Source: Candidatus Nanoarchaeia archaeon
GTDB lineage: Archaea; Nanobdellota; Nanobdellia; CSSed11-243R1
DNA length: 32,000 bases
Assembly: GCA_028713895.1 (NCBI GenBank)
Contig: JAQTNH010000001.1
Coordinates: 546,979-578,978 of the forward strand
Direction of reading: 5' to 3'
A program made the position numbers and the translations under genes. The first letter of the stretch is position 1; every line of letters starts with the position of its first letter. The notes under the pieces are model-generated. The model was not told the origin of the DNA. It did not search any database and was given only the letters and a program-made list of their open reading frames with translations. Shown here in pieces: positions 7,001 through 28,581 of the stretch.

Positions 7001-10000
7001 AGAATAGTTCCCATCAGGCACAGTAGTCGTATTCCACATATACCTTGTTGAACTCAAATTACCATAGCCAGTTACCACGCTTGAATTGAATGTCAAATCT
7101 GGGTTAAGCAGTGTTATGTTGAACTGGACATTATTGCTTTCTTCGTCTAAAACATCAGTCCAAGTAATATTGACGTTTCCATTCACAATTTGATTAGCAG
7201 ATGGTATTAATACAAAAGGTTCGGTTGGACCATCATTTATTGCTGTAATCGTAAAGTTTGATTTTTCTGTATTATTAATTGCGCCATAGCTGTCATTTGT
7301 GAAGACGGTTACATTGTAAACTCCAGCAGCACCTGTGTCAGTAAACACGTTTGTTTGATATCCAAGATGGGTTACATAAAAATCATCCCACGTTGCAGAT
7401 AACGAACCCCACTCAGACGCATATGAATCTGTTTCAAAAGTTGGATACACTGCCTTGCTTATATTGACATTATTTTGCGTTGCTTCCAGTGTCCAAGTGC
7501 TGTCTGTATTGTTCCATGTGTAGAACGTGAAATTATAACCCACTCTTGTTATCCTGAATTTGCCATTTGTGTCATTCGTATCCCTTGAAGATATATAGGC
7601 ATCAATGACTCCATCTTCGATGTAAACACCATATTGAAGCGTTGAACCTGTCCAATTTGATAAATCCAATGAAACTGATTTTAGAGTGCGTCCAGATATC
7701 GGGGCTTCTGAAATCATGAACACTAATTCAGAATCCTGCTGCAAGCCACTGGTCAGATTGAATGTTATGTTCATGTCAAAGTCGCCATAGGTCGGGTAAT
7801 TCATGAATATGCGGCAGTAAGCCCCTGTATTAGGGCTTCCGTCTCCGGAGATTGCAGTGTAAGCTTTTCCAGAAACATTTGAATTGATGTTTGCCACACA
7901 AGTTTGGTTTGGCCCAATAGTACTGTTTTCAATATGATATATTACGTTCATCAAACTGAATGCAAATGAATCGTAATCCCCGCCCGTGTACAAAGTAATG
8001 TTTGTTGAGGTTCCGTTTGGCACTGTAACTGTCGTATATTTGGTGTTTATTCCGTCCTTGTCAGTGATGTTGGCTACAAGCGGCACAGGGAATCCCTCAT
8101 CAAAAGTCTCGTCCAGCGGTGAAACAATGATTACACTTGGAGCGTAGTCTACCCTTACTGTCCGTGGTTCGCTGACATTCCAGTTGCTTGTACTGTCATT
8201 TGCATAAACTTTGTAACTGTACAAATCCTCAGAAAGTCCGGTTACATTGTAGTACCTGTTGGTTCCGCTTCCATCCATTGTGTAATTTGTACTGTTCCAG
8301 TCAAGGATTGCTGTGCTAAGCGCTTCGTTGCCTGTGATATTTATGTAAGTCCAATTGTATGTCCAGGCTGTTCCATTGTCTGGTGTGGGACTGACAAATG
8401 TTATGTTTGGCGCTGCTTGGTCTATTGTTACGTTTCTTGTTTCTGTTGAATTGCTGTTGCCTGCCGTGTCATTGCACCAGGCATAAAATGCATATGTCCC
8501 GTCTGTAAGCCCTGTCTTATTTTCCCAGAACAAATCTCCGGCGCTGTTGTCGAAGCTTTCATTAGCCCCGTTCCAGCCGAACACCACTGTATCGCGGTTT
8601 GTATCATTGCATGTCACATTTACGAATATCCAGCCCTGGCTCAGGTTTGCCTGCGGCGTGGTTGTCGGGTTATAATAAACAGACGGGTTTGTCAAGTCAA
8701 CTGTAAAGTAAACAACACCGCTTGAATTAAAGTCACCCGAAGAATAGTTGCAGTAGAATGTAACGTTGTGCGTTCCTTCAGCCACAGTGCTTAAGTTGTA
8801 ACTATGGAAAAGCGTGTCGTTATCCATTGTAACATTTGCCGCGTTATCAAGCGAGTAGCCGCACCAGTCTGTCAATCCTGTGGTTAAGTTAAACCATATT
8901 GACGACGTATTATAAGTGCTGTTTGTCGGCGACTCTATTGTGATTATCTGGGTGGATGTATCAATGATAACTGTCCGTGTCCCGCTTACATTCATGTTTC
9001 CTGCAGAGTCGTTTGCATAAACTTTGTATGTGTATGTTCCATCTGCAAGTGATGTCTTATTAGCCCAGCAGGTTACATTTGAACCGCTGCCGACTTTTGC
9101 CATGCTTTCATTTGTTCCATTCCATTCAAGCAGGCAGGAATCAACAGCCACATTGTCTATTATGCTCGCGTTTATTGTTGTCCAGTCATAAGCTATTGTG
9201 GCTGCATCCAATTGAGTTGGTGCAATGAATGTTATGTTTGGGGGGGTTACATCACTTGCAACAACCTCGTAGGAATCAAACCTGCTGATGTTTATTGCCG
9301 GCAGGTATATTGTGCGGTTACCTGTATAGAAAGTGCACTGGCTGGTTATGTCTGCTGGAACACCGCTTATATATTTTAGCACAGTAATGTTCCAGCCGCT
9401 TCCAACACCATAACCAGAGTAATTTGTCCATACTGTCAGATTATTAATCTGCAAGTCGCTTACCAGTATTGAGACGATTGTTATGTTCCAGGTGATGTTC
9501 GCAGATGTATTTGATATAAGACGTTCCTCGTCCCTGATAGAATCCAAAAACAATGAATCAACTGTCTCGTTTATCTCACTGAATGCCGGAATCATTTCAG
9601 TTGTCCACGTAATTTGATTGACTGAGTTTATTGTTGCAGTTTCATTTGGTCCTGCAGAAGCATTGTCAGAGGCGAGCAAGCCGCCAGTAGAATTGTACAC
9701 ATAAGTCGTATTTGGCGCTATGCTGTTCGGGTAGAACGCCAGTATCCTGGACAAGAAGATGTACCTGTCCTGTGAAGCAGCATCCCTGGAATTATTAAAA
9801 TTAATTACATATCTCCGTGTAGAATTTGAAGTGCTGTTCGGGCCTAATGTGTAACCTGGGTCCAGCTGATAACTGAGCACCATCGTGCCGTCAAAATTCA
9901 ATCGCTGTGCAGATTTTATGAATATGTTGGCGGGTTCATTGGTGTAGTTGTAGGATATATTAACCTGCTCAACAACAGGAGAAGTACAGTTCAGATACAA

Positions 10001-13000
10001 CGCCTCTCCGATATAAAATCCTGAGTCTATCTTGCTGGTTTCAATTCCGGTATAGTTGGACTCCACTATTGTGGGCGTATCCGCAGGGATAGTGACTGGG
10101 TCTATACAGCCAAGGTATACGGGCTCCCATATGTGCGGCGAACTGAATTTACAAAGGATAACCTTGCATGCGGTGTCATTTACCGACATGTTCATGCGGA
10201 ATGTAAACGGCGGATTGAACAAATAGGAATTCACAAAGCTGCAGTCGGCATTGGACCCACAAAATATTATCGGGTCTATGATGTTCAGCCCTGTGCTTAG
10301 GTTAACATCATAGGTGCGGGTATGCGGAATTCCATCGGTTGGCTCTTTCCTGATATAATGTGTTGTCCATATGTCAGTATCATATGTTCTATTCGTAAAC
10401 TCCCACAGATAGCCATAGAACCATACCTGGGCTGTTGTGGTATTGTTTGCGGTATCATAATTTGATTTCGAACATGTTATGTTAAACTTAACTGTGTCAT
10501 ACAAATCAAAAGTTGAGATGTTGCCTGTGTAATTCCCGCTGGATAAATTATAATCCAAGTCCAGGATTGCCGCCTGGCTGGAGGACTGATTATTCAGCAC
10601 AGAACAATTTGCGCCAAGTATCGGATTCCCAAGATTGTCCAAGTATCTTGCATTGAAATTTATGTAAATGTCATAGCCTGAACCTGGGGAACGTCCCTGT
10701 GGATATGTTTCATTGTCAGTGCTGAATGTCACTGTTGTTGGTATTGACTGGACTATGAAACTCTGGATTCCAGTCTGGTTCGGATTGCCTGCAGAATCAT
10801 TTGCCCAGAAATACCATGAAACATTTGTTCCTGCAGCAGCTGTGATTGCCGTAATGTTTTCGGAAACATTCGTTGTTCCGCTAAATGGAACAAAGCTTGA
10901 GTTGACCCAGGCGCCGCTCTGGTTGTTTGAGAAGATATAGCCAGTCAAATTGATATTGTCATTCCAGGTTGCGTTGAACTTAATTGTGTCATTCCAGTAA
11001 ACATTTGTTGCGTTTATTGACGCGTTGAACCACTGCGGTGCTGTTGCGTCAGCCGTGAAAATAACCGAATTCGTAAAGACTGTTCCTGCAGTGTTGTTTG
11101 CAGCGATATGCAGCGTGATAACTCCCTGCGCAACAATTATTGTTGTATTGCTGCAATCATAAGTCGTGTTTGTTGCCCAGCTGTCTGTTGAGTACCAGCA
11201 TGTATCTATGCCTGTACCTGCGATTGTTGTGTTAAGAATTATGCTGGTTGTGTTGTACACTGTACTGGACGGGGAGTTTATTGTAATTATTATAGTCCCA
11301 GTGCTAAGCGTAAGGTTCCTAGTTTCAGTGAAGTTGTAATTTCCAGCTTTGTCATAAACTGTTGCATTATAGTAATAAGCGCCGTCTGCAAGCCCTGTCC
11401 AGTTAATCATCGTCGGGTAAGATGTGTACGCTGTGCTGTTAACTAAAGTTGTGTTGTACAGGTAGTATGTGAAATTCTTCAGGTCGGACTCGTTAATGCT
11501 TACATTTGCGGCAATCCAGTTTAGATTAACAGTTATGCCTGAACTGTTTGTTGGGGCTGTGAATTGTATCTGCGGATAAGTTGTGTCCACATAAACAAAT
11601 CGCGTATCTGTCTGGTTGATGTTGCTTGTCGTGTCGTTTATCCAGGCTGAAAAGTTATAAGCGCCGTCTGAAAGCCCAGTCTTGTTTGACCAGTAGACAT
11701 CGCCTGCATTGTTGGCAAATGCTTCTGGAGTGCCGTTCCAGTATAACAGCACAGTGTCCTTGTTCAAATCAGCCGCGGTTGCATTAACCAGTATCCAATT
11801 TCGGTTATACCATGTATCATTCGCATCTGTTGAGGGGTTATAATAAACTTGTGGCTGTGTTGCTCCCAATACTATCGTATAATTGCCTTCGCTTGCCCAG
11901 ACAGGATTGCTTGAGGAGTCTTTGCCATAGCAGTTCCATATAAATGAGCCCTCGTAAGGCAGTGTGAACGTATAGTTGCTGCTGTTTGTTGTTCCGCTTA
12001 GCGAGGTTGTGTTTGCATAAATTTGCGAATTGGTGCTGTTCCAGATGTATAGCGTAAGGTTTGAAATCTGATAACTGTCAGTAATGTTGCATCTGAAAGT
12101 CTGGCTGGCACTATCTGTTATTGTGCTGTTTGCGGGTGAAATAAGATGCACGGCGGGTGCTGTTGTGTCTTGTATTGCAAAAGAACTTGTGTTTGATGCA
12201 CTGGTATAATTAGCATCTCCTGTGGTGTTGCATATGTAATTCCAGGCGCTTACATTAAGCAGGGTGGCTGTGCTATTCTCAGTCGCAGTCACATTAGTCC
12301 CGTTCCTGTAAAGCGCCCCGCCAATAGTGCATGAACAGTTAGCAGTCAATAGCGCCCCATATTCCTGCGGACTCGTCTTGTCAAAAGTAAGACTACATGT
12401 GGGCGTTGCCTGACTAACAGTCAGATTCCAAGCCATGCCTGTTGCATTGTCCAGATAATTTGCATTGCCGGTTGCATTTGCCTTGTAAACATATAATCCT
12501 GCACCAAATGTTGCAACTTCAGACTGGGGCGATGCTCCGCTTGCAACCTGTGTTCCGTTCCTGTACAAATAAGCAGTTCCAGCTGCTGCGCTTGCTGTTG
12601 CATTGCTTGCCTGTCCATAACTCTCTGTCAGGTTAGCTGCGCTTCCATTTAACAGAAGTGTTACTGGATTGGTTGCTTTGTCCATCACGAAAGTGCTTGA
12701 GTTTGATGCGTTCGTATAATTAGCATTTCCTGTTGTGTTGCACATGTAGTTATAAGTGCCAGCGCCGAGTGATATAGGATTACCATTCTCAGTGGAGTTT
12801 ACATCTGCCCCGTTTCTATAAAGCGTGGCAGCTCCAACAAAACATGAGCAAGTTGCAGTCAGGTCTGTTCCATAAGGCTTCGGAGATGTCTGGTCAAATA
12901 TAAGCGAACAGTTGTTTGCTTTGAGATTATTAATTGTAAAGTTTGATGAATAACCATATGAGCAAAGTGAATTATTGTCGCATGCCTCAACACGTATCAA

Positions 13001-16000
13001 GTAATCCCCGTTTGTTGCTGCTGTGCTGTTCCATCTGTATGAAAGATTAACCGAGTTATTGGACTGTATTGTCTGTGCAAATGTTAAGTTTGGATGGACG
13101 AGGGATATATTGTAATAAGCAATAGGATACTGATTTGGAGACAATGCTGCTGTGTAATTGATAGTGATATTTCCCGAGTAATAGCTTTCATTGGGCTGGT
13201 AAACATACGGCGGTGTCGGGGGCAAACCGCTTAAATTAAGCGTATCCAGTATGACTGGTGAACATTCTCCATTGCCCAGCGTGTCATTTGCACAAACATA
13301 ATAGTATAATATCTCTGTGCTGTTATACTGGTGCAGGTGTGCATCTACAGTTCCAGTCAGATTAGTCCATGCGCCACCTTTGTTTGTTGAGTTCTGGGTC
13401 GTGTCAGTTCTTGAAACATTTGTTATATAATATATATCCCAGCCCTGTACGCCGCTTCCTGTTGGGTCAAACATGAAATATGAAACAGGAGTCACTTTTA
13501 TTGTTCCTATCATCCCGTTTGTTACATTTATTGCAAAGATAGCTACATAGTGACTTGAATGGACAGAATGTGTGTGGTTATATGTTGTCGCTGCAGCTAA
13601 ACTGTAAAAGTTAGTACAAGTGCCAGCCTGTGCTGGAGCAGATGGATTTCCAGTTGTGTATGTTGAGTTACAGTACCATACTTTAAGCAGGGCTGATGTT
13701 GCTGACCTGTTCAATGCCATAAACTCAAAAAAGGAGTACTGTTTTGTATTGGATACATTAAAGAGCCTTAATTTGAGCAAGTCATTAGTTTTACTTGTTA
13801 GGTTGTATGTTGTATGCGGCGTTAATTCTATGCCCCCTTCGTTAAGGTTGTATGTTCCAGGGTATATCTGGTTGTCAAGCAACTGCCAAAGCCACATGTC
13901 TGATGTGTTTGAGGTCCAGTTCTTTGTCTGGTATCCGCAATAACCATCACTTCCATTAAAAGTTGTCCAGCAGTCAGATGTGCTTATATTTGTTTTGTAA
14001 TAAAGTGAAATTGAGCTTACATTTAATCCGTTTGCAGCAGTCAGATTATAAGTTATGTTCAGTGGCATACCTATGTTGCCAAAAGATGTCACATCAGCAG
14101 GTGTTTGGTTTATCCATGTTATATTTGGAGACTTAACTGTAAATGTCCAGTTAGATAACGCAAAAGAACACTGGCTTGAATTGTCGCAGGCATGACAATT
14201 CCATTTTATTGCGCCGTTTGACAGTCCTGTTCGTGCAAAAGTCGTGTTGTTGCCCGTGCCTGTTACGGTTGTTGTCCCGTTTGACTGCCATGTGCCGGAA
14301 TAGTTCCAATACAATGTTAAGTTTGCCAGCTGAGCAGTATCTGTTGCATTGCATATGAAGTTTGCGCTGTTCAGTGTTGTTACATTTCCGTTTGCTGGTG
14401 AAACCAAGTCTACAGTTGGTGCGGTGTCAGCAGCTGCACCACAGGCTCCGTCCCATTGGGTTCCATTAAGATAATATTTTTTCAATGTTGTGGCATTCGA
14501 AGAGTTTGAATAAGCAATTATGAATTTTCCCGGGCATATTTGCTGCCCTGTTACAGACTCCTTGCCCATGACACTCATTAATTTGTAATCTATGTTTTCT
14601 TCGCTATCAACAGTAAACGCGGCTATTTTTGTCCCATTTCCATAATAAGTTGCCGCTACAATATTTCCAGCAGTCGCATTATACCATGCCAATACAAAAG
14701 AGTCATTTGCATAATTTTCCGCCTTTACAGCAGCAACATCCAGCCAAGTGCCTGTAGTCGGCCCTGCATCCGGTTCGATTACTGTATTTGCGATTGATGC
14801 GGTTCCGTTTTTGTAGATTACTGTATAGCCCAAATCTTGGTCATTTGACAGATAAAATGCATAAACAAACTTGTCATTGTCAAGCCCAGCAACACTCAGC
14901 CTTGAATCGGTGCCTGCGGTTGGGTCAACATTTATCCTGGCAACAGCTTCAGCCCCTGTTCCGTCATATATGATAAACGCAAGGTCATTTACCCCCTGGT
15001 CCCACCATCCGTAAACAAATCGTGTGGAATTTATTGCAGAGACGCTTATGAAATCAACAAGAGCAGACGGAGTTGCAACTGTTGGGTCAACATCAATTAT
15101 CCCGGTCAGATTAGTTCCCGCATTATCAAAAATCTTAAATGAAGCATCCCCTTCAGAATCATCTGACCAGCCAACAACAAACCTGTTGCCCATCTGTGTA
15201 GCAGACAAATCAGTTATATGGCTGTCGCCTGTTGCTGCCGCAATGTTGTCATCAACAATAATATCACTTGTTAATTTTGCACCGCTGATATTATAAATTG
15301 CAAGAGTGATATTGCAAATATTAGCTGCTGTATCATGGTCATTTGTCCATGCAACAACAAAGTGCGTCTGGTTTATTGCTGAAACCGCTATTCTTGGATA
15401 AAGGGGGAGGTTTGCGGAATCAATAATCCCGTTTGAAATGACGGTTCCATTTGTGTTATAAACCTTGAAGTAAGCAATATTTGTGTCAGCCACATAAGCC
15501 ATAACAAAAGTAGTGTTGTCTATCGGAGTTGTGTCCAAATCCTTGGAGGAGTTTTGTGAAACAATTTCAGCAAACCCTGGATCCTCTGGCGTCAGTGTGA
15601 CGTTATACAGCTCACCAGGAGTTATTGACTTAATTGTTATCCATTCCCCCTCGCAGGTCTGGTTCGTGAAGTTCCAGTCTTTGCATTTCTGCAATATATT
15701 CCCCTTTGCGGTGACTGTAACATTTGCAATTGTGAAATTGATTGCAGTCGGGTCAATTGCATAAGTCTGGATGGCTTCCCCATTGTTAGCAGGCTCATCA
15801 ATGTTGACAATATTGGTAATGTTGGTGTCTATGTTGACGTCATCAAATACAATTTGTTTTATTGTGCTGTTTACAGGCTCTACAACAATGTCATATGTAC
15901 CTTTTTTGATTTTCTTTGAGTGAGAAACTCCAGTATCATTATAAACAACATCACCTTTTTTGTCTATCAATTTAAGCGTGTGATTAATAGGCTCTTTTTT

Positions 16001-19000
16001 TGAGTTTTCCACAGTCTCATTTAAAATCACACTTACAGGAGTGTTAAAGAAATCAACATCGTATAGTTCCCAGTATTCGCCGTTGCCGTTGTTTACTATC
16101 TTGAACTCAAACTTTGCAGCGCTTAAATTTCCTGCAGTGAAATTAAGCTCATTCCAGACAAGGTCATTGTAAGCTCCGGAGTATACCAGTTCCCATGCAT
16201 TGTCCTTGAAAACACTGATGTTAACCATGTCCATGTCAACGCCCTTTGCATAGAAGCGCAGCATGTCTGAATTTATTGAGGGCGTGATATTGAGTATTAT
16301 GGGGAAGCTCCAGTTACCGTCAGCGTCATTTAGGTTATGATAGCTCTTTGCTTTGGACTCAGAGTCAAGAACATCATCGTATGCACGCTCCTCCCAGGTC
16401 CATTCATTGTTTGGATCGGAATAACCATTCGGGGACAGCCAGCCATAGTCAGGTATTCTTGTTGTGAATTCAACATATGAGCCATTTGCAATTCCCTTGC
16501 TGTTGTTAGCCTGAGCTCTGTAGTAGTAGGTTGTGTTAAACTCCAAACCCGATAATATGTATGTGAAATTGCTTCCTGTGCTTCGCCTGTCAGACAGCCA
16601 TGCTGTTGTGTTTCCATAACTTGTTGTTAGCCCGTATTCAAAGCGCACATCGCATACTTCGCCTCCGTCAGAAGCCAGTGTGCCGTGCATAACTGCAGAT
16701 GTTTTCCCAACTGAAGTTGCATTGTTGGTTGTAACAACAGGCAGATATGATGCAGATTTGTTTGAGAACTGGAACTCATAAAGCCAGAATACTGTGCCGC
16801 TGGCACTATAGTGCCATCTGAAACGCGCTGCATTGACTGTAATATCAGTTCCATAGCCCATTTCATCCCAAGTGCTGTCAAGCATAGAGCCATTGCGGAT
16901 AGTCACCCATGAATTGCTGTTGGCATCAAAAACATCCACCTGTACTGCGTCTGTGTATCCATATCCATAGTCCGCGTATACCCTGACTTTGTCTGAAGTT
17001 ATGTTTTGGCTTAGGTTAAACGTAATAAAAGAACCCCATGTTGCGATTGACGAGCCTGATGCGTCAGACGCATAGGTCCCTGTATTGTCATCATAAGCTT
17101 TCTGCCCTTTTGTCCAGTTACCATCAGCTGTCCAGCTTGTCGGCACTAACCAGTTGCTGTCATGTATGTAATCAAACTCTATGTATGCACCAGGATTATT
17201 ATCTGCGTTTACAATCTTTAAGAGGAAAGTATCACTGTATCCTGTCATTCCGGATATTTCTATGTTGTACTGCATGTCTGTTGTTACTGTGATTTCTCCC
17301 ACGCGGACAGAACCCGTTTCATCATAGATTTCTACTTTCGTATTCAGCCCCTGCATGTTTCTGGGATACAGGTTTATTACGTTTCCATTCGTCATATCGT
17401 CGTCGAAGTACACCCGCACATATTCGTTGTGATATATCGGTTCGGACCAGATGAAATCGCGGGTTATTGTTTCGTTGAATATGTCTGATACAAAGTTCTT
17501 GTCTGCGTCCAGATGTTCAGCAGACAAGACATATATTTCCTTGAATGCGGGGTCCTCTGCAGTTAGCTCGAACGTGTATTCTTTCCCCGAATTTATTTTC
17601 TGAGCTAATATCCACTTGCCGTTGCATGCCTGTCCTTCAAAGCTCCAGTTGGCGCATTTGTAAAGAGCGTTCCCTTTTGCAGTGACTGTGACATCTGCGC
17701 TGGTGAAATTGATTGCAGTCGGGTCAATTGCATAGGTCTCAACGCTGCCTTCTGATTCAGGAGTGTCGTCAACTTTTATGAATCCTGTCTGGTTCTCGGA
17801 AACTATCATGTCGTGAATAATGATTCCAGTTATCGGGCCTTCCTGCAATTCGACAGTAACCTCATAAATTCCAGTGGGGATTGTTTCGTTGGCGCCCTCT
17901 TCAGAAGCTATTTCAAAGGACTGCACTGAAGATGTGCCAAACACATCTTCCTGCGCTTTTGGAGTGAACAACATTGTTGCATGGACAACTTCGCCGTTTG
18001 CATTGATTATTGTGTAGTTTGATAATGTAACATTTTCAGGAGGTGTTTGATTCAAAGTTTCGTTTGTTTCACTTTCGTTTGATATCTCTTCGGTTATATT
18101 TTGATTCTCAATAAGCGTGTAGTCAATTTCAGTTATTGTCACAGAAACATTTCCAGTGCTTACAAAATAAAGTGTATACGAACTCTGGTTAAGACTGTAT
18201 TCATCAAGCATACATGTTTCATCGCAAAGGAAGTTGAATGATTTGTAGATTACTTCCTGCTGAGCTTCTTCTGTTGTATTCTCCGAAACTGTTTCTTGTG
18301 CTGGGGCTTCTTCGACAGGAGTTTGTTCAGGGGAAGATATTTCTATTGTTTCAGAAGGTGTTCCAGTTTCTTCAGCTATTGCGCGCCCTTTTATTGCATA
18401 CGCTGTAATTCCAGATTTTTTAGTCGAAGCAAGTTCAGAAGTGTCGAGAATTAAAAGACGATTTCCAGAATTGTCTTCCAGATACATTGTAGTGTTGCCT
18501 TCGCCGATTGTGTAGCCTGAAATCATTACGGATTTAAGGGTTGTATTTTCATTGTAGTTCTGCATGTCCCAGCTGTAATTGTATTCATCAGAGCTAAATG
18601 TTAATTGTAACTCTTCTTTGTATTGGTGTTCCTGTCCAGAAAACATCCCTGTCATAATAAAAATGGGAGACAATGCAGCGCATAATATCAGGATTAACGA
18701 TGCATACATTAACAGTTTTGAATCTTTTTTTGGCGGTTCTGAAAGAGAAAACACAGGAGTCTTCGGCATTTTTGCACAGTCAACTTCGTTTAATACCACT
18801 GAATTTTTAAGATTAACAGAAAAGAAGCGTTTATTGTGCGCAGAAACTCTCTGGCTGACATAATTCTTTTCAATAAGCTCCTGCATGTACCTGTACGCAG
18901 GTTCGTAAGAGATTGAGAGCTTTTCCTGAATTTCGTTTAGCGTATGTTCCTTATTGGGTTCAACAAGCATAATTTTAAGAATATCCAGATGACTGCGGCT

Positions 19001-19060
19001 TTTTTTGGGCGTATTTGGGTTATTGTATTCTCCAATAACTGAGTTTTCGGGCTCAGGCAT
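4067..19060 (-). CDS. Giant (4,997 aa) type-II membrane surface protein: cytoplasmic N-terminal wHTH, one TM helix, repetitive ectodomain of ~4,850 aa (Ig-like, FN3-like, propeller-like) rich in N-x-S/T (adhesin/surface-layer-like)
   Basis: Single uninterrupted 14,994-nt ORF with a TATA box ~26 nt upstream of its ATG. Domain and repeat evidence is itemised in the sub-features below. There is no C-terminal anchor, so the N-terminal TM is the only membrane segment I see. Confidence 0.95.
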   Translation of the reverse strand: MPEPENSVIGEYNNPNTPKKSRSHLDILKIMLVEPNKEHTLNEIQEKLSISYEPAYRYMQELIEKNYVSQRVSAHNKRFFSVNLKNSVVLNEVDCAKMPKTPVFSLSEPPKKDSKLLMYASLILILCAALSPIFIMTGMFSGQEHQYKEELQLTFSSDEYNYSWDMQNYNENTTLKSVMISGYTIGEGNTTMYLEDNSGNRLLILDTSELASTKKSGITAYAIKGRAIAEETGTPSETIEISSPEQTPVEEAPAQETVSENTTEEAQQEVIYKSFNFLCDETCMLDEYSLNQSSYTLYFVSTGNVSVTITEIDYTLIENQNITEEISNESETNETLNQTPPENVTLSNYTIINANGEVVHATMLFTPKAQEDVFGTSSVQSFEIASEEGANETIPTGIYEVTVELQEGPITGIIIHDMIVSENQTGFIKVDDTPESEGSVETYAIDPTAINFTSADVTVTAKGNALYKCANWSFEGQACNGKWILAQKINSGKEYTFELTAEDPAFKEIYVLSAEHLDADKNFVSDIFNETITRDFIWSEPIYHNEYVRVYFDDDMTNGNVINLYPRNMQGLNTKVEIYDETGSVRVGEITVTTDMQYNIEISGMTGYSDTFLLKIVNADNNPGAYIEFDYIHDSNWLVPTSWTADGNWTKGQKAYDDNTGTYASDASGSSIATWGSFITFNLSQNITSDKVRVYADYGYGYTDAVQVDVFDANSNSWVTIRNGSMLDSTWDEMGYGTDITVNAARFRWHYSASGTVFWLYEFQFSNKSASYLPVVTTNNATSVGKTSAVMHGTLASDGGEVCDVRFEYGLTTSYGNTTAWLSDRRSTGSNFTYILSGLEFNTTYYYRAQANNSKGIANGSYVEFTTRIPDYGWLSPNGYSDPNNEWTWEERAYDDVLDSESKAKSYHNLNDADGNWSFPIILNITPSINSDMLRFYAKGVDMDMVNISVFKDNAWELVYSGAYNDLVWNELNFTAGNLSAAKFEFKIVNNGNGEYWELYDVDFFNTPVSVILNETVENSKKEPINHTLKLIDKKGDVVYNDTGVSHSKKIKKGTYDIVVEPVNSTIKQIVFDDVNIDTNITNIVNIDEPANNGEAIQTYAIDPTAINFTIANVTVTAKGNILQKCKDWNFTNQTCEGEWITIKSITPGELYNVTLTPEDPGFAEIVSQNSSKDLDTTPIDNTTFVMAYVADTNIAYFKVYNTNGTVISNGIIDSANLPLYPRIAVSAINQTHFVVAWTNDHDTAANICNITLAIYNISGAKLTSDIIVDDNIAAATGDSHITDLSATQMGNRFVVGWSDDSEGDASFKIFDNAGTNLTGIIDVDPTVATPSALVDFISVSAINSTRFVYGWWDQGVNDLAFIIYDGTGAEAVARINVDPTAGTDSRLSVAGLDNDKFVYAFYLSNDQDLGYTVIYKNGTASIANTVIEPDAGPTTGTWLDVAAVKAENYANDSFVLAWYNATAGNIVAATYYGNGTKIAAFTVDSEENIDYKLMSVMGKESVTGQQICPGKFIIAYSNSSNATTLKKYYLNGTQWDGACGAAADTAPTVDLVSPANGNVTTLNSANFICNATDTAQLANLTLYWNYSGTWQSNGTTTVTGTGNNTTFARTGLSNGAIKWNCHACDNSSQCSFALSNWTFTVKSPNITWINQTPADVTSFGNIGMPLNITYNLTAANGLNVSSISLYYKTNISTSDCWTTFNGSDGYCGYQTKNWTSNTSDMWLWQLLDNQIYPGTYNLNEGGIELTPHTTYNLTSKTNDLLKLRLFNVSNTKQYSFFEFMALNRSATSALLKVWYCNSTYTTGNPSAPAQAGTCTNFYSLAAATTYNHTHSVHSSHYVAIFAINVTNGMIGTIKVTPVSYFMFDPTGSGVQGWDIYYITNVSRTDTTQNSTNKGGAWTNLTGTVDAHLHQYNSTEILYYYVCANDTLGNGECSPVILDTLNLSGLPPTPPYVYQPNESYYSGNITINYTAALSPNQYPIAYYNISLVHPNLTFAQTIQSNNSVNLSYRWNSTAATNGDYLIRVEACDNNSLCSYGYSSNFTINNLKANNCSLIFDQTSPKPYGTDLTATCSCFVGAATLYRNGADVNSTENGNPISLGAGTYNYMCNTTGNANYTNASNSSTFVMDKATNPVTLLLNGSAANLTESYGQASNATASAAAGTAYLYRNGTQVASGASPQSEVATFGAGLYVYKANATGNANYLDNATGMAWNLTVSQATPTCSLTFDKTSPQEYGALLTANCSCTIGGALYRNGTNVTATENSTATLLNVSAWNYICNTTGDANYTSASNTSSFAIQDTTAPAVHLISPANSTITDSASQTFRCNITDSYQISNLTLYIWNSTNSQIYANTTSLSGTTNSSNYTFTLPYEGSFIWNCYGKDSSSNPVWASEGNYTIVLGATQPQVYYNPSTDANDTWYNRNWILVNATAADLNKDTVLLYWNGTPEAFANNAGDVYWSNKTGLSDGAYNFSAWINDTTSNINQTDTRFVYVDTTYPQIQFTAPTNSSGITVNLNWIAANVSINESDLKNFTYYLYNTTLVNSTAYTSYPTMINWTGLADGAYYYNATVYDKAGNYNFTETRNLTLSTGTIIITINSPSSTVYNTTSIILNTTIAGTGIDTCWYSTDSWATNTTYDCSNTTIIVAQGVITLHIAANNTAGTVFTNSVIFTADATAPQWFNASINATNVYWNDTIKFNATWNDNINLTGYIFSNNQSGAWVNSSFVPFSGTTNVSENITAITAAAGTNVSWYFWANDSAGNPNQTGIQSFIVQSIPTTVTFSTDNETYPQGRSPGSGYDIYINFNARYLDNLGNPILGANCSVLNNQSSSQAAILDLDYNLSSGNYTGNISTFDLYDTVKFNITCSKSNYDTANNTTTAQVWFYGYLWEFTNRTYDTDIWTTHYIRKEPTDGIPHTRTYDVNLSTGLNIIDPIIFCGSNADCSFVNSYLFNPPFTFRMNMSVNDTACKVILCKFSSPHIWEPVYLGCIDPVTIPADTPTIVESNYTGIETSKIDSGFYIGEALYLNCTSPVVEQVNISYNYTNEPANIFIKSAQRLNFDGTMVLSYQLDPGYTLGPNSTSNSTRRYVINFNNSRDAASQDRYIFLSRILAFYPNSIAPNTTYVYNSTGGLLASDNASAGPNETATINSVNQITWTTEMIPAFSEINETVDSLFLDSIRDEERLISNTSANITWNITIVSILVSDLQINNLTVWTNYSGYGVGSGWNITVLKYISGVPADITSQCTFYTGNRTIYLPAINISRFDSYEVVASDVTPPNITFIAPTQLDAATIAYDWTTINASIIDNVAVDSCLLEWNGTNESMAKVGSGSNVTCWANKTSLADGTYTYKVYANDSAGNMNVSGTRTVIIDTSTQIITIESPTNSTYNTSSIWFNLTTGLTDWCGYSLDNAANVTMDNDTLFHSYNLSTVAEGTHNVTFYCNYSSGDFNSSGVVYFTVDLTNPSVYYNPTTTPQANLSQGWIFVNVTCNDTNRDTVVFGWNGANESFDNSAGDLFWENKTGLTDGTYAFYAWCNDTAGNSNSTETRNVTIDQAAPNITFVSPTPDNGTAWTYNWTYINITGNEALSTAILDWNSTNYTMDGSGTNRYYNVTGLSEDLYSYKVYANDSTSNWNVSEPRTVRVDYAPSVIIVSPLDETFDEGFPVPLVANITDKDGINTKYTTVTVPNGTSTNITLYTGGDYDSFAFSLMNVIYHIENSTIGPNQTCVANINSNVSGKAYTAISGDGSPNTGAYCRIFMNYPTYGDFDMNITFNLTSGLQQDSELVFMISEAPISGRTLKSVSLDLSNWTGSTLQYGVYIEDGVIDAYISSRDTNDTNGKFRITRVGYNFTFYTWNNTDSTWTLEATQNNVNISKAVYPTFETDSYASEWGSLSATWDDFYVTHLGYQTNVFTDTGAAGVYNVTVFTNDSYGAINNTEKSNFTITAINDGPTEPFVLIPSANQIVNGNVNITWTDVLDEESNNVQFNITLLNPDLTFNSSVVTGYGNLSSTRYMWNTTTVPDGNYSVRVIVFENDTAELYSRSNTMTGNFTVDNTKPQIEFVSGTTASSNLSQGYIQANVSASDLHFANITVYIYNSTGLVNSSGSSSTGLFVNFTGLPNEDYYLNATATDLAGNTNSTATINITLDTVKPTILFIPQTTGAGTYSQSYIEANASASDLHLDTITIHLHNSSGASEAGHVSEGSSTISPLFTNFTSLPDGQYYLHAVANDSAGNNKTTSMMSIILDTTAPQIEFNSPTRNSGVITVKTYIVANVSITEPILANFTYYLYNSSGLVNSTTYTNHPNFVNWTGLDNGTYYYNVTAYDDVGNFNYTETRNITVNTSAFSFVIDSPTGIYYNTSEVWFNLTTSANATSCNYSLDSAPYLSMGNDSATHWYDSNSSMTEGSHNAAFECSDIYNDIYDFVNFDVDTIYPAIAFASPTTSGNVSQDFIEVNVTSDDSSLAGITVYLYNSTSLVSNLTSSTSPFFANFTSLADGDYYVNATTIDIVGHTNLTATINVTLDTVAPTITIASPTSTAYDNATQLLNLTIDGASNVWYNWNGTNVSYIVPVYIIFPEGNSTITGYANDSAGNLNSTSLTFTIDTTAPMWSNNAASPASPAEEGGSYTFTIDWADMTGVDEAVFEFNGTNYTLSGGGITQNGNAYSITLTGLAIGNYSYMWYSNDSFGHANSTEYRYYILIAAAEEAPSGGGRPSGSGLVPSNITALRCGDSMCSPGELCSTCPQDCGSCQGEYEGIELLEKVNGTAQQINDLECNMLTEKELVYTIKNTGDQPLENVYLDVDCPDEKPVVNEMHYGKKVGWNFVDLVGWGFVGSVKNPKLTEWADKHIFVADKIMPGEEIDVNIKSLVPITESANKKVVFRVLSGDRIVAEETANVKVSMPSSAVAASYNKEDNTLDLYILVNNVWGKNLENVYIEFNMNDGKSTKIFELFGPYKVSANDVLLMADKYLLSDRIESKEHALTIKVYDGIRKLAVAETVLDLKGE
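4070..4834 (-). other. Giant protein aa 4743-4997: compositionally distinct, sequon-poor C-terminal (distal) domain
   Basis: It has one N-x-S/T (NGT) in 255 aa, against 8 and 9 per 100 aa in two upstream windows I counted (aa 2301-2400, 4051-4150). It is K/E/V-rich. The segment ELVYTIKNTGDQPLENVYLDVD is weakly reminiscent of CARDB-type beta-sandwich domains. Confidence 0.6.
4835..4900 (-). other. Giant protein aa 4721-4742: Cys-rich motif CGDSMCSPGELCSTCPQDCGSC
   Basis: Seven Cys in 22 aa in the pattern CG-x-x-x-C-x-x-GE-x-C-x-x-C-x-x-DCG-x-C. Related motifs (CNNTICEPGENLTNCCIDCGC, CGNGICEDLYGKESHRSCDDDC) occur in the secreted protein at 28980-29882. Confidence 0.7.
5516..6922 (-). repeat. 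Giant protein aa 4047-4515: run of ~90-100-aa Ig-like modules, one block of many similar modules between aa ~1546 and ~4600
   Basis: Modules start D(N/T)(T/V)(K/A)P(Q/T)I(E/L)F..., carry ...ANVSASDLH..ITVY(I/L)YNS(T/S)... and end ...Y(Y/L)(L/V)NAT(A/T).D.AGN.N.T...I.L. Related modules occur at aa 1546-1643, 2299-2398, 2404-2585, 3272-3640 and 4517-4596. Confidence 0.75.
12173..12910 (-). repeat. Giant protein aa 2051-2296: three tandem ~85-aa repeats
   Basis: Unit 1 is CSLIFDQTSPKPYGTDLTATCSC...LYRNGADV...GAGTYNYMCNTTGNANYTNASNSSTF and unit 3 is CSLTFDKTSPQEYGALLTANCSC...LYRNGTNV...SAWNYICNTTGDANYTSASNTSSF. A Cys-less middle unit sits between them (...AYLYRNGTQV...GAGLYVYKANATGNANYLDNATG). 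Confidence 0.8.
14441..15514 (-). repeat. Giant protein aa ~1183-1540: seven tandem repeats of ~50-60 aa (beta-propeller-like)
   Basis: Successive units start FVMAYVAD, FVVAWTND, FVVGWSDD, FVYGWWDQ, FVYAFYLS, FVLAWYNA and FIIAYSNS. Each is followed by a strand-like segment (e.g. ASFKIFDNAGTNLTGIIDVDP, LAFIIYDGTGAEAVARINVDP, LGYTVIYKNGTASIANTVIEPD). Confidence 0.55.
15560..15769 (-). repeat. Giant protein module copy 2 (aa 1098-1167), paralogous to 17531-17740
   Basis: See copy 1. The preceding ~45 aa are also parallel in both copies (IYEVTVE...IIHDMIV...IKVDDTPE versus TYDIVVEP...IVFDDVNI...IVNIDEPA). Confidence 0.85.
16457..16747 (-). other. Giant protein aa 772-868: fibronectin type III-like domain
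   Basis: YLPVVTTNNATSVGKTSAVMHGTLASDGGEVCDVRFEYGLTTSYGNTTAW...FTYILSGLEFNTTYYYRAQANNSKGIANGSYVEFTT matches the common prokaryotic FN3-like pattern (T..AT.V..TSA.L.G.L...G....V.FEYG.TTSYG...GL.P.TTYYYRA.A.N..G...G....FTT). It is flanked by two paralogous ~135-aa modules (16751-17155 and 16046-16444) that share W..P......W.....AYDD... Confidence 0.6.
17531..17740 (-). repeat. Giant protein module copy 1 (aa 441-510), paralogous to 15560-15769
   Basis: ETYAIDPTAINFTSADVTVTAKGNALYKCANWSFEGQACNGKWILAQKINSGKEYTFELTAEDPAFKEIY compared with QTYAIDPTAINFTIANVTVTAKGNILQKCKDWNFTNQTCEGEWITIKSITPGELYNVTLTPEDPGFAEIV gives roughly half identical residues. It includes a 32-nt exact DNA identity (17703-17734 = 15732-15763). 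Confidence 0.85.
18641..18715 (-). other. Giant protein aa 116-140: single transmembrane helix (signal anchor)
   Basis: LLMYASLILILCAALSPIFIMTGMF is 25 uncharged, mostly hydrophobic residues, flanked by KKDSK on the N side and SGQEHQYKEE on the C side. Confidence 0.8.
18776..19060 (-). other. Giant protein aa 1-95: predicted cytoplasmic winged-helix-turn-helix domain
   Basis: SHLDILKIMLVEPNKEHTLNEIQEKLSISYEPAYRYMQELIEKNYVSQRVSAHNKRFFSVN fits the helix, HTH (TLNEIQEKLSIS / YEPAYRYMQEL) and beta-wing layout of ArsR/MarR/TrmB-type wHTH domains. The first 115 aa contain zero N-x-S/T sequons. The basic PPKKDSK segment directly precedes the TM helix (positive-inside rule). Confidence 0.6.
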
Positions 19061-19069
19061 AGTTATTGG
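19032..19069. promoter_or_regulatory. Inverted repeat CCAATAACT(N20)AGTTATTGG spanning the giant gene's start codon (candidate operator)
   Basis: Exact 9-nt arms at 19032-19040 and 19061-19069. An inner complementary pair is CTGAG 19039-19043 / CTCAG 19052-19056. The arms lie at +21..+29 and -1..-9 relative to the A of the ATG (19060), between the TATA box and the coding start. Confidence 0.5.
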
Positions 19070-19082
19070 GAGTCTTTTTTTG

Positions 19083-19090
19083 TTTAAATA
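19083..19090 (-). promoter_or_regulatory. TATA box (TATTTAAA on minus strand) of the giant gene
   Basis: Centred 26-27 nt upstream of ATG 19060..19058, the same geometry as the other first-in-unit genes here. This supports M1, and therefore inclusion of the wHTH, as the translated start. Confidence 0.5.
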
Positions 19091-19113
19091 CTTTATTTAA
19101 GCCGGCTAGTGCG

Positions 19114-19142
19114 CCAATAACTAAGACAAAGTTCCAATAACT
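19114..19142. promoter_or_regulatory. Two direct copies of CCAATAACT exactly 20 bp apart upstream of the giant-gene promoter
   Basis: Exact copies at 19114-19122 and 19134-19142, at -54..-62 and -74..-82 relative to the ATG. Confidence 0.45.
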
Positions 19143-19156
19143 GCACCTTTCTTGCT

Positions 19157-19189
19157 AAAAACTGCCCTTTCTCTTTGCAAAAGAGAAAG
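19157..19189 (-). terminator. Hairpin plus T5 tract downstream of tRNA-Arg(CCT)/pepA (possible terminator)
   Basis: CTTTCTCTTT-GCA-AAAGAGAAAG is a perfect 10-bp stem (19167-19189). On the minus strand it is followed by GGCAGTTTTTAGC, with the T5 at 19161..19157. It lies ~37 nt after the tRNA 3' end. Confidence 0.4.
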
Positions 19190-19225
19190 CGTAAGCTGCG
19201 GAAAGAGAAAACATTTAAAATATAA

Positions 19226-19300
19226 CAGGCCTGGAGGGATTTGAACCCTCGACCTACGCCTTAGGAAAGCGCCGCTCTATCCAAGCTGAGCTACAGGCCT
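19226..19300 (-). tRNA. tRNA-Arg (anticodon CCT), no intron, CCA not encoded
   Basis: AGGCCTG TA GCTC AGCTTGGATA GAGC G GCGCT TTCCTAA GGCGT AGGTC GAGGG TTCAAAT CCCTC CAGGCCT G. The cloverleaf pairs fully, with GU at both ends of the anticodon stem. The anticodon is at 19265..19263. The D-arm is identical and the variable loop and T-arm nearly identical to the tRNA at 3053-3170. Confidence 0.9.
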
Positions 19301-20825
19301 ATTTTTTGAGGAACTCTACCAGCAAACGAAGCCCGGTGCCGGTTCCGCCTTTGGGCAAATATCCTCTTTCTTTGTCCAGGAAAGCAACTCCCACTATATC
19401 AAGATGCACCCATGGCGTGTTTTCTGCGAAGGGCTCCAAGAATACCGCGCCGTTTATTGAGCCTGCCTGCCCTTTTGGGCCAAGATTCCGCAAATCTGCT
19501 ATCTCGCTTTTGATATCATCCTTATATTCCTGGAACATTGGAAAACTCCAGACGCGTTCATAAACCTTTTTGCCAGCGTCTTCCAATAACTGCGCTGCTT
19601 TGCTGTCATTGCTGAACATTCCTATTGTGTGAACTCCAAGCGCCACAACAACCGCGCCGGTAAGGGTTGCCAAATCGATTATTAAATCTGGTTTGTAATT
19701 GCGCACAGTATAGGATATTGCATCTGCAAGCACCAGTCTGCCTTCTGCATCTGTGTTTGCAACTTCAACAGTGATTCCATTGTAAGATTTTAGTATATCC
19801 CCAGGCTTGTAAGCATCCGGACCAATCATGTTTTCTGCTGTGCCAATAACTGCAATAATATTTTTCTTTAATCTTAGTTCTGCAGCTGTTTTAACCAGCC
19901 CAAGAACTGTTGCAGCGCCTGCCATATCGCATTTCATGTCCTGCATTGCAGTTTCAGGCTTAAGGTTCATCCCGCCTGAATCAAATGTAAGCCCCTTTCC
20001 AATAACTGCAATCCGCTCTTTTGAATCAGGATTACCATTGTATTCCATTATAATAAGATAGGGGGAATGCTTGCTGCCTTTCCCAACAGAGTAAATAAGA
20101 TTGAGCCCCTGCTCCTTTAGTTCGCTTGCATCGAGAATTTTTATTTTTAATTTATTCGCATCTGCAATTGACTTTGACATCTCAACAATCTCCTCAGGAT
20201 GCTCGATGCTTCCGCTTTCGTTCACCCAGTCGCGCACAAGATTCACATTATTGCAGAGTTTCTGGGTTTCTTCAACCAATTCCTTGTATTTGCTTTCTGC
20301 AAGAACAGTCATGTTCCTGATTTCCTTTGCGCGCGGTTCAAGGGTTTTGTACCTGTCAAAATGATAGTCCCCAAGCAAAAGCCCCTCTACAATTGCCTTG
20401 ATTAGCCCATGTTTTTCAAATTTCAAATCTGGGAGCAGGACTGTAAAATCGTTAACCTGCGAAAACTTCAGCAGGCGGATTGCTGCTGCATAAGCCTTGC
20501 GGATTTTTTCCAAATCAAGTTTTGCTCCTTCATCCAAGCCTACAAACAGATAGCGCTTTGGCTTTTTGTCGTGAATATTAGGAACCAAATCAGTTTCGCA
20601 GAACTCTGCGCGGAAAAGCGTGGCTTTCAGCACTTTTGACATCTCGCCTGAATCAGACTTGCGCATTTCAGCAAGCTTTTCCTTTGTCAAGGCGCAGATT
20701 AAGACATCACTGTCCATATTATCATACTTTTCCTGGCTAAGCTTTATGTTTTGTATCCCCATATTTTCAGATTTTTCAGTATACATAGCAATCCCTTCAT
20801 TCGTTATGTTTAAAATGTATTGCAT
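19299..20825 (-). CDS. pepA: Leucyl aminopeptidase, peptidase family M17 (likely true start at M14, nt 20786)
   Basis: Contains the M17 signature NTDAEGRLVLADA plus VIGKGLTFDSGG and DMAGAA metal/active-site blocks. The longest ORF leaves only 13 nt to the divergent gene. A TATA element at 20809-20816 is 26 nt from the ATG at 20786..20784 (M14), so 19299..20786 is my preferred model. Confidence 0.95.
   Translation of the reverse strand: MQYILNITNEGIAMYTEKSENMGIQNIKLSQEKYDNMDSDVLICALTKEKLAEMRKSDSGEMSKVLKATLFRAEFCETDLVPNIHDKKPKRYLFVGLDEGAKLDLEKIRKAYAAAIRLLKFSQVNDFTVLLPDLKFEKHGLIKAIVEGLLLGDYHFDRYKTLEPRAKEIRNMTVLAESKYKELVEETQKLCNNVNLVRDWVNESGSIEHPEEIVEMSKSIADANKLKIKILDASELKEQGLNLIYSVGKGSKHSPYLIIMEYNGNPDSKERIAVIGKGLTFDSGGMNLKPETAMQDMKCDMAGAATVLGLVKTAAELRLKKNIIAVIGTAENMIGPDAYKPGDILKSYNGITVEVANTDAEGRLVLADAISYTVRNYKPDLIIDLATLTGAVVVALGVHTIGMFSNDSKAAQLLEDAGKKVYERVWSFPMFQEYKDDIKSEIADLRNLGPKGQAGSINGAVFLEPFAENTPWVHLDIVGVAFLDKERGYLPKGGTGTGLRLLVEFLKK
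20809..20816. promoter_or_regulatory. Shared bidirectional TATA element (TTTAAAAT / ATTTTAAA)
   Basis: Its centre is ~26 nt from the ATG at 20839 (+ gene) and ~26 nt from the ATG at 20786 (pepA M14, minus strand). Confidence 0.45.
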
Positions 20826-27850: not shown

Positions 27851-28294
27851 ATGGGAAAAGTTTTTAAGGACAAGCCAATCGCGGAGATAATCCTGCGCAG
27901 ATTCGAGCGCCCATTCAATGAGAACACAGACTCACTGATAAGAAAGTTCTGCATTTCAATAGGGCTGTTGCAGCCAGGGGATTCCAGAGATGTTGTTGCA
28001 GACATATTCAAACTTCTGCTTGAAGGAAGAAAAGAGCGCAAGATTTTTTCTTCCAAGGAGATTGAGGACTCAATACGGACGCAAAGGGATACCGGCGTTG
28101 CGGGCTCGAACATACGGAGACAACTTTTGAGAATGGAAAAAATGGGTTTGATTGAAAAAAACAACAACGGCTACAGATTCAAGGAATTCATGGGCCTCAA
28201 CGAAATATTAAGCTCACAAATCCTGAAATTTTTGATAGAACCAACTTTTGAAAGAATAAAGGAATACGCTGACGAGATAGACAAACGAAATTAG
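27851..28294 (+). CDS. Winged-helix DNA-binding protein (147 aa)
   Basis: The ORF track gives 27629..28294, but its first 74 codons overlap the GalT-like gene on the other strand. The in-frame ATG at 27851 has a TATA box at -26. The C-terminal half, SNIRRQLLRMEKMGLIEKNNNGYRF, is a recognition-helix plus wing pattern. Confidence 0.75.
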   Translation: MGKVFKDKPIAEIILRRFERPFNENTDSLIRKFCISIGLLQPGDSRDVVADIFKLLLEGRKERKIFSSKEIEDSIRTQRDTGVAGSNIRRQLLRMEKMGLIEKNNNGYRFKEFMGLNEILSSQILKFLIEPTFERIKEYADEIDKRN

Positions 28295-28581
28295 TCCCTG
28301 TCAATTTTGTCAAAAAGAGTCACTGTTTTAGAAAGATATTCTGCAAGTTCCTTTCCTGCGCCAGTTAACTGTATTGTTTTTGTCCTGCCGTCCCTGCTGA
28401 AATCAACAAGCCCGTTCTTTTTCAGGATGTTTATCACGCGAACTGTGTGCGAATACGTGCAGTCAACCTCTTTTGCAAGCACAGAAGCGTATCTTTTCTT
28501 CGCATCTTTCGCCAAATTAACTAGAATCATCACTGGCTTTTTTCTAAGGAAGAAATGATGCAGTTCGTTTTTCTTTGACAT
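28291..28581 (-). CDS. Small MarR/ArsR-like winged-helix transcriptional regulator (96 aa)
   Basis: RYASVLAKEVDCTYSHTVRVINILKKNGLVDFSRDGRTKTIQLTGAGKEL is a canonical HTH, wing and C-terminal helix. A TATA-like TTTATTAAG lies ~26 nt upstream. The stop codon overlaps that of the convergent wHTH gene (shared TTAG). Confidence 0.8.
   Translation of the reverse strand: MSKKNELHHFFLRKKPVMILVNLAKDAKKRYASVLAKEVDCTYSHTVRVINILKKNGLVDFSRDGRTKTIQLTGAGKELAEYLSKTVTLFDKIDRD

Follow-up and report, generated by a model that had tools for sequence, protein, structure and literature searches.

A short sequence box forms a candidate operator array at the promoter of a giant predicted surface-protein gene in a DPANN archaeon

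A stretch of 32,000 nucleotides from a Candidatus Nanoarchaeia archaeon (contig JAQTNH010000001.1, positions 546,979 to 578,978; the whole stretch is called the window below) was found to carry a cluster of a 9-bp box at the promoter of a gene encoding a giant predicted surface protein of 4,997 amino acids. Judged by the over-representation of the site at this locus and by its positional conservation against diverged flanks in orthologous promoters, the box is a selected cis-element of the giant-gene promoter, where it forms a candidate operator array. The giant gene itself opens with a predicted winged helix-turn-helix (wHTH) domain. Syntenic relatives were identified via their PepA homologues, namely L004 (88% identical), L005 (86%), L006-L009 (70%) and L013/L014 (52%), and across these the box has the 9-bp consensus AGWTATTGG, in which W is T or A.

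Boxes at the giant-gene promoter

On the minus strand the order of the locus is pepA, tRNA-Arg(CCT), a spacer of ~82 nt, the box array and the giant gene. Coding-strand boxes, inverted box and core promoter are placed as follows, with positions in signed numbers counted from the ATG of the giant gene:

20825 to 19299, minus strand: pepA, encoding an M17 leucyl aminopeptidase.
19225..19301, minus strand: tRNA-Arg(CCT), between pepA and the box array (ARAGORN, Rfam).
19134..19142, minus strand: upstream box 1, AGTTATTGG, at -82..-74; exact match with 5 of 9 columns invariant; its counterpart lies at -83 in L004 and L005, and in L006 it is degenerate.
19114..19122, minus strand: upstream box 2, with the sequence AGTTATTGG at -62..-54 and a distance of 20 bp to box 1; exact match, 8 of 9 columns invariant.
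19083..19096, minus strand: core promoter, with the TATA box TATTTAAA at -30..-23 and a purine-rich stretch resembling a B recognition element (BRE) upstream of it; kept in relatives.
19061..19069, plus strand: start-proximal inverted box, reading CCAATAACT on the coding strand, at -9..-1; exact match, 1 of 9 columns invariant in L004-L006.
19058..19060, minus strand: ATG of the giant gene and predicted transcription start of a leaderless mRNA (open reading frame, TATA geometry).
19032..19040, minus strand: downstream box, AGTTATTGG, at +21..+29, coding for S-V-I-G and forming the left half of a dyad; 8 of 9 columns invariant.
19018..19026, plus strand: dyad, right half, at +35..+43, reading ACAATAACC on the coding strand; a near-copy of the box, GGTTATTGT on the plus strand.
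13054..13062, plus strand: isolated box copy deep inside the giant gene; exact match.
4067..19060, minus strand: giant gene (MDD5239421.1 / PHH61_03080), an open reading frame of 4,997 amino acids annotated as a hypothetical protein.

The exact 9-mer CCAATAACT has eight matches in the window (plus-strand positions 19032, 19114, 19134, 19583, 19843 and 19999; minus-strand positions 19061 and 13054), compared with an average of 0.30 over 100 dinucleotide-preserving shuffles; no shuffle had as many as eight. Seven of the eight are packed into 1 kb. One-mismatch variants occur at the chance rate, with 8 extra matches and ~8.6 expected in total, and the 7-mer TTATTGG is present 11 times, seven of them within 19000-20050. 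The background of AGWTATTGG outside the cluster is ~2 copies in ~42 kb, including 11 kb of flanking sequence from the same organism in which one further copy was found. As far as 43 kb can show, the cluster is local and does not reflect a genome-wide habit. The isolated copy at 13054..13062 matches the background rate and is probably due to chance.

The clustering had been noticed in a first-pass annotation made from the sequence alone, which reported seven copies within 1 kb and one other at 13054-13062, estimated fewer than one copy per window to be expected and proposed a check against shuffled sequence. An exact-match scan returned every copy at the coordinates it had given, and the shuffles, run on the window only, agree with its estimate and place the observed count far beyond chance. 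Its smaller observations also hold: the 14-nt identity TTCCAATAACTGCA between 19132-19145 and 19997-20010, the 20-bp distance between the copies at 19114 and 19134, the inner arms CTGAG/CTCAG, and the TATA box at 19083-19090, which reads TATTTAAA on the coding strand.

When the 60 nt before each start were inspected, most genes in the window were found to have a TATA-like box ~24-32 nt 5' of the ATG and no ribosome-binding site; GGTG-type ribosome-binding sites are confined to four internal operon genes, with starts at 3994, 25350, 26849 and 30798. From this pattern, leaderless transcripts look like the norm in this organism. Because the giant gene has the TATA-to-ATG distance common to most window genes, its transcript is predicted to be leaderless as well, starting at or next to 19060.

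Each of the four relative lineages has pepA, a tRNA and then a gene which opens with the winged helix of the giant protein. The sequence AG(T/A)TATTGG is present at -62/-63 and at +21 in L004, L005 and L006, and also at -83 in L004 and L005; the counterparts of upstream box 2 (which in L004 reads AGATATTGG) stand in diverged flanks. In a four-way alignment, 16 of the 18 columns of the -62 and +21 boxes are invariant compared with 19 of the 114 other columns (Fisher p=2.8e-9). The box including its W variant is also enriched in the relatives themselves, with 5 copies vs 0.06 expected in L004, 4 vs 0.04 in L005 and 7 vs 0.26 in L006. Extra lineage-specific copies occur near the locus, at -249 and +385 in L006 and at +1186 in L004, a pattern reminiscent of sites turning over within a homotypic cluster.

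The downstream box lies within codons, and two observations bear on what is being conserved there. The +21 box of L006 is AGATATTGG, in which a T to A change replaces Val by Asp and leaves the box consensus intact; the -63 box of L004, which is noncoding, shows the same T/A variation. The first 18 residues of the giant protein, which are predicted to be disordered or of low confidence in a single-sequence AlphaFold2 (AF2) model, are missing from the L013 protein; the homologous L013 DNA has ATA TAA instead of ATG CCT, is noncoding and keeps the boxes. Since the consensus survives the Val to Asp change and the noncoding L013 DNA retains the boxes, it is the DNA and not the peptide that is under constraint.

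Five bases past the +21 box lies ACAATAAC, resulting in the arrangement GTTATTGG-N5-aCAATAAC, which agrees with a perfect palindrome at 15 of 16 positions. The general form of this dyad is GWTATTGG-N5-CCAATAAC, with a length of 21 bp and a position of +22..+42 in the window; the one at 19018-19040 is the sole 15/16 dyad in 43 kb and had gone unnoticed in the first-pass annotation. Scored out of eight, the partner at N5 spacing reaches 7 in the window, 5 in L004, 5 in L005, 6 in L006 and 8 in L013; in the background the probability of a score >=5 is 0.037 and that of a score >=7 is 0.0008. The perfect dyad of L013, GTTATTGG-GTTTG-CCAATAAC, is located at +13..+33 of the position homologous to the window ATG. 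Upstream of that position in L013 are TATTTTAA, 29..22 nt away and a candidate TATA box, and an inverted box TGAATAACT with 7 of 9 matches at -9..-1, 12 nt past the end of TATTTTAA; a second TATA candidate in L013 would put the dyad across the start.

On this comparison the downstream dyad is the element common to all five lineages. The core which the lineages share is made up of boxes flanking the start together with this dyad, and the upstream direct repeats are best described as an addition of the clade to which the window belongs. The first-pass annotation had envisaged a repressor operator, with the inverted pair that brackets the ATG as its key, and had suggested looking for the motif upstream of orthologous giant genes. 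That comparison came out in its favour, with boxes at fixed positions in four syntenic relatives, and the operator idea stands in outline, as boxes do flank the predicted start in a repressor-type layout. The geometry has to be revised, since the conserved elements are the downstream dyad and the upstream direct repeats. The -9..-1 arm of the ATG-bracketing pair is strong in the window and decayed in L004-L006, and beyond the window it is matched at 7 of 9 positions in L013 only.

Several features of the surrounding DNA were recorded alongside the array. The ~82 nt that separate the tRNA from the first box (19143-19224) are missing in the relatives, in which the box follows 1-12 nt after the tRNA; a 13-mer of this segment, GAAAGAGAAAACA, recurs exactly at 18741-18753 inside the giant gene. 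The segment contains one further element:

19167..19189, minus strand: hairpin with a 10-bp stem followed by a T-run, terminator-like.

The tRNA-Arg(CCT) of the window is intron-less, 77 nt long and changed in its anticodon stem compared with the relatives, whose orthologous genes (L004:1496-1612, L005:1694-1811 and L006:10300-10425) have an insert of ~40-50 nt after the anticodon loop and a total length of 117-126 nt. Two more tRNA genes of 116-118 nt, at 3053-3170 and 28746-28861 on the minus strand, apparently contain introns and were detected by Rfam and missed by ARAGORN in its default mode. Two start candidates exist for pepA, 20825 (508 amino acids, Logan gene calls) and 20786 (495 amino acids, NCBI and relatives); with the 495-amino acid form, 52 bp separate it from a divergent ATP-grasp gene, and each of the two genes has a TATA-like box at about -30.

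The giant protein and its winged-helix family

The nearest annotated homologues belong to Woesearchaeota, and the source organism, a DPANN archaeon, is present in SRR22315508 and SRR22315509. Two parts of the giant protein matter for the regulation of its gene:

18764..19060, minus strand: N-terminal winged helix, amino acids 1-99, the candidate binder (Pfam, PDB profiles, AF2 model, fold matches).
18641..18712, minus strand: single hydrophobic transmembrane segment of ~25 residues, at amino acids about 117-140, after the basic sequence PPKKDSK (translation).

In Pfam the N-terminus matches HTH_24 only, at 19.2 bits, which is below the cutoff, and profile matches from the PDB are to wHTH domains of IclR/MarR type. 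The AF2 model has the order H-H-H-beta-beta (H20-33, H41-48, H52-64, E68-72 and E78-82) with a predicted local distance difference test (pLDDT) score of 71-85 in the core; fold matches are to the MarR, PadR and ArsR families, with MepR, MarR and SlyA as the best. On the basis of the positive-inside rule, the protein is predicted to have its N-terminus inside and its C-terminus outside the cell. The ectodomain would then comprise ~4,850 Asn-rich residues with many N-x-S/T sequons and immunoglobulin (Ig)-like Big_13 repeats. Beyond the wHTH, Pfam analysis of the 4,997 amino acids returned Big_13 and a weak Pur_ac_phosph_N match, and no sensor or transducer domain.

As far as L013, the recognition helix LS(I/L)SYEP(A/V/T)(Y/H)R is retained together with the box. 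Members of this wHTH family are rare, at nine matches among 1.84 billion representative proteins. The same order of wHTH, transmembrane helix and ectodomain is found in P0125 (3,773 amino acids, encoded on ENA/JGI contigs of 75-118 kb) and P0129 (MCD6547486.1, J7K22_02950), and the fusion is kept in four lineages. P0125 has two tandem wHTH copies ahead of its membrane helix. Another group, P0127, P0130 and P0132 (~210 amino acids), has the wHTH fused to a domain resembling a minimal nucleotidyltransferase, with the motif GS(T/R)ARK...SDIDLF. Distant homologues of the ectodomain (L002 and L003, 31% identity) have no wHTH fusion, and there a small separate gene overlaps the start of the giant gene; that of L002 (735-950) is ribbon-helix-helix-like, with a weak DUF7557 match, and that of L003 (4947-5177) encodes an unannotated 76-amino acid protein. 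Coupling of a putative DNA-binding module to the giant gene is, on these comparisons, a recurring theme.

Other searches added no members to this set. Scans of genome contigs and of metagenome contigs with the N-terminal alignment found no relatives, and the wHTH alignment, used in a word-indexed protein search, had no matches. The strict pattern box-N53-ATG-N17-box had three matches in metagenome contigs, all attributable to chance and including a thyX-like gene. The loci of P0010 and P0013 are not syntenic with the window locus.

Candidate binders and alternative explanations

No other promoter with a box or a dyad was found in the 43 kb sampled. Because the box is confined to this locus in that sample, a dedicated regulator is suggested. 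E. coli PepA binds DNA, and, if the archaeal PepA is counted by this analogy, the conserved locus encodes one further DNA-binding domain, which is the wHTH of the giant protein itself. The reading which is tentatively preferred, and to which somewhat less than even weight is given, is that the boxes are sites of a dedicated winged-helix regulator, the likeliest binder being the membrane-tethered head of the giant protein acting in autoregulation. Under such a mechanism the dyad just downstream of the start would be bound by the cytoplasmic MarR-like winged helix, held at the membrane via amino acids about 117-140. Occupancy of the start-proximal and downstream boxes would block recruitment of RNA polymerase or its escape from the promoter, resulting in negative feedback on a very costly gene. 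The auxiliary boxes would assist, namely the direct repeats at -82 and -62, which stand two helical turns apart, and the inverted box that this genome has at -9..-1. The upstream ones would contribute cooperativity or a positive input at low occupancy.

Several points weigh against autoregulation by the head. Other wHTH proteins are encoded nearby (96 and 147 amino acids, 9 kb away), are conserved in L006 and could bind the boxes. The wHTH of the giant protein has no MarR dimerisation helices, so that a dimer would have to recognise a dyad through some other interface. In archaea, boxes placed upstream of BRE/TATA are seen more typically with activators, which makes the net sign of regulation uncertain. 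The AF2 model was made from a single sequence and has a mean pLDDT of 59, and the sampling covers five lineages for the conservation and 43 kb of a 956-kb genome for the box scan.

The same array could also serve a different binder, a reading with a fair, though smaller, chance of being correct, in which the regulator is the 96- or 147-amino acid wHTH protein, a 310-amino acid wHTH protein at the left edge of the window or a factor encoded elsewhere, and the wHTH of the giant protein does something else. The two small proteins are encoded as follows:

28291-28581: small wHTH protein of 96 amino acids.
27851-28294: small wHTH protein of 147 amino acids.

Footprint and enrichment carry no information on the binder, and the small wHTH genes are syntenic in L006-L008. 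Against these candidates, the 96-, 147- and 310-amino acid proteins have no detectable similarity to the wHTH of the giant protein, and no box stands at the promoter of any of their genes. The box also goes along with the wHTH-giant gene into L013, and what can be seen of that locus is limited to pepA, the tRNA and the wHTH gene. Had the factor many targets, sites would be expected at other promoters, and none is seen in the 43 kb. An arrangement in which a regulator, self or other, sits at -82/-62 as on an upstream activating sequence and recruits TBP/TFB in the manner of ArnR, EarA or Ptr2, with the dyad secondary, is considered improbable. In its favour, three lineages have, upstream of BRE/TATA, two boxes of the same orientation at a distance of 20-21 bp, and ArnR boxes at -43..-84 are both required (PMC6396743). 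This upstream pair is however absent from L013 and half-degenerate in L006, whereas the downstream dyad is present in all five lineages. An explanation at the level of RNA, raised in the first-pass annotation, is that the -9..-1 and +21..+29 copies pair in the mRNA and occlude the start codon. The 46-nt segment of the window does fold, at -11.5 kcal/mol (z=-3.9), but relatives have no stem (z between -0.3 and +1.2), and the TATA geometry implies a leaderless mRNA from which the 5' arm would be left out, so that this alternative has next to nothing to recommend it. It is also very improbable that the repeats are non-transcriptional, as a tRNA-linked integration site, a replication origin resembling origin recognition boxes (ORB) or DNA-binding sites of PepA: the array does adjoin a tRNA gene and its boxes do flank an AT-rich stretch, but it is relative to the giant gene, to its TATA and ATG, that the boxes hold constant distances, and not relative to pepA or the tRNA.

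A number of specific candidates were examined and discarded. The small wHTH proteins are ruled out as paralogues of the giant's wHTH by the missing similarity, and a regulon within the sampled 43 kb was rejected as no other strong site or dyad was found. For an att site or integrated element, no integrase domain was detected in 43 kb, and the 12-mer repeats of the tRNA proved to be the two other tRNA genes. For a replication origin, no orc1/cdc6 gene was detected in the window or its extensions (43 kb), and the AT-rich intergenic stretch is ~40 bp long and holds the TATA box. As regards known RNA families, Rfam matched the tRNA only in the intergenic region.

Two observations concern the other wHTH genes. 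An exact CCAATAACT lies at L006:2081-2089 inside the conserved 96-amino acid wHTH gene; this copy is probably due to chance, because the homologous window sequence, GCAGAATAT, does not match. The 310-amino acid protein (window 1-243, minus strand, extended in L016:695-1627) opens with a MarR/HTH_20-like wHTH and also matches S_layer_C weakly, and its gene is divergent from glmS; this is a further case of a wHTH joined to a surface-protein-like domain.

Three further exact copies of the box are located inside pepA:

19583..19591, minus strand: codes for Q-L-L-E in a different frame; exact match, core GTTATTGG kept in L004, L005 and L006.
19843..19851, minus strand: A-V-I-G of IIAVIGTAE; exact match; L006 keeps it, L005 keeps the core, and in L004 it is broken.
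19999..20007, minus strand: A-V-I-G of IAVIGKGLTFDSGG; exact match; L004 keeps it, L005 keeps the core, and L006 has lost it.

These copies may be auxiliary or reservoir sites, or partly coincidental. Both IAVIGKGLTFDSGG and IIAVIGTAE are conserved M17 motifs. With synonymous codons resampled for PepA, the mean number of copies was 0.13-0.29 and three or more copies had a probability of ~1-2e-4, and because of this low value the amino acids and codon bias alone do not explain three copies. A codon-aware conservation test found no signal above background for them in the relatives, with exact 9-mers retained at 1/3, 1/3 and 2/3 compared with 0.30, 0.38 and 0.215 for other pepA 9-mers with conserved amino acids. 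A possible explanation of the count of seven, though less likely than not, is that it is partly coincidence: the pepA copies would reflect no more than the peptides IAVIG (twice) and QLLE as common codons spell them, and the promoter copies alone would be functional. The amino acids are conserved at all three sites and retention is no better than that of the comparison 9-mers, which fits this explanation; the resampling result, obtained with the PepA sequence and local codon usage, and the turnover pattern of extra lineage-specific copies near the locus in L004 and L006 speak against it.

A more specific proposal combines the head and the pepA copies. The giant protein itself would be a membrane-tethered one-component transcription factor acting at its own promoter, and the pepA copies would help to hold the locus at the membrane; this is thought doubtful. 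If it were true, transcription of the 15-kb gene would need minutes more to finish once the head had been made and inserted in the membrane, so that the head could act in cis on the gene copy from which it is being produced, as a nascent-chain feedback. The state of the ectodomain (~4,850 residues), with the touching of a host cell as one example, could be passed on to transcription.

Relation to known systems

Giant surface proteins of DPANN archaea are thought to mediate attachment to host cells. To our knowledge, almost nothing is known about gene regulation in these archaea or about the control of such proteins, and a full-text literature search found no paper which links a giant DPANN protein to a winged helix. 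The SPEARE proteins of Nanohaloarchaeota are giant DPANN surface proteins (PMC6642349). The protein described here is likewise a very large predicted surface protein of a DPANN archaeon, but unlike SPEARE it has Big_13 Ig-like repeats only, and no serine protease, adhesion or restriction-endonuclease domains were found with Pfam.

Among regulators, ArnR and ArnR1 of Sulfolobus acidocaldarius are membrane-bound one-component factors whose paired boxes within -43..-84 are both needed (PMC6396743). The features in common with ArnR are an archaeal host, a helix-turn-helix at the N-terminus, a membrane anchor, paired short boxes upstream of BRE/TATA and a cell-surface structure as the thing controlled. 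ArnR differs in having a HAMP and a sensor domain, two C-terminal membrane helices and TCGAC-N5-GTCGA boxes, and in targeting other genes, those of the archaellum; here the helix follows right after the wHTH, ~4,850 residues would be extracellular, the box is AGWTATTGG and the apparent target is the own gene. No sequence relationship between ArnR and the giant protein was shown. Of the parts that make up an ArnR- or ToxR-like factor, a predicted cytoplasmic wHTH and a membrane anchor were found, and a sensor or transducer domain was not. The bacterial factors ToxR, CadC and TcpP share the cytoplasmic N-terminal winged helix, the single membrane helix and the extracytoplasmic domain, and bind direct repeats near promoters. 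Their wHTH is of OmpR type and their periplasmic sensors are small, in contrast to the MarR/PadR/ArsR-like fold, archaeal promoter and giant ectodomain found here.

The MarR family (MepR, SlyA and the archaeal BldR) provides the best fold and profile matches, and its members have palindromic operators over the transcription start and are commonly autoregulated. The winged-helix core and a beta-hairpin wing are present in the giant protein; unlike MarR, it has ~75 structured residues in a domain which ends at about amino acid 95, lacks the dimerisation helices, is fused to a membrane segment and stays below the Pfam MarR threshold. Archaeal repressors of the MDR1, LrpA, Phr and TrmB type have boxes between the TATA box and the start or just downstream, and the sign of their regulation depends on position. 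The placement of boxes relative to the predicted start of the giant gene is similar, and the motif differs.

What is gained is a conserved candidate operator of precise position, made up of a box of 9 bp and a dyad of 21 bp that stand at fixed distances from TATA and ATG, together with a rare wHTH family which repeatedly heads giant membrane proteins. If the head does bind the boxes, it would represent a new architecture of archaeal membrane-bound transcription factor and a possible route by which events at the cell surface reach transcription in an episymbiont. As a cis-element, the array is a new member of a familiar class; its pairing with a protein in which wHTH, transmembrane helix and giant ectodomain are joined would be a novel variation on membrane-bound one-component regulation.

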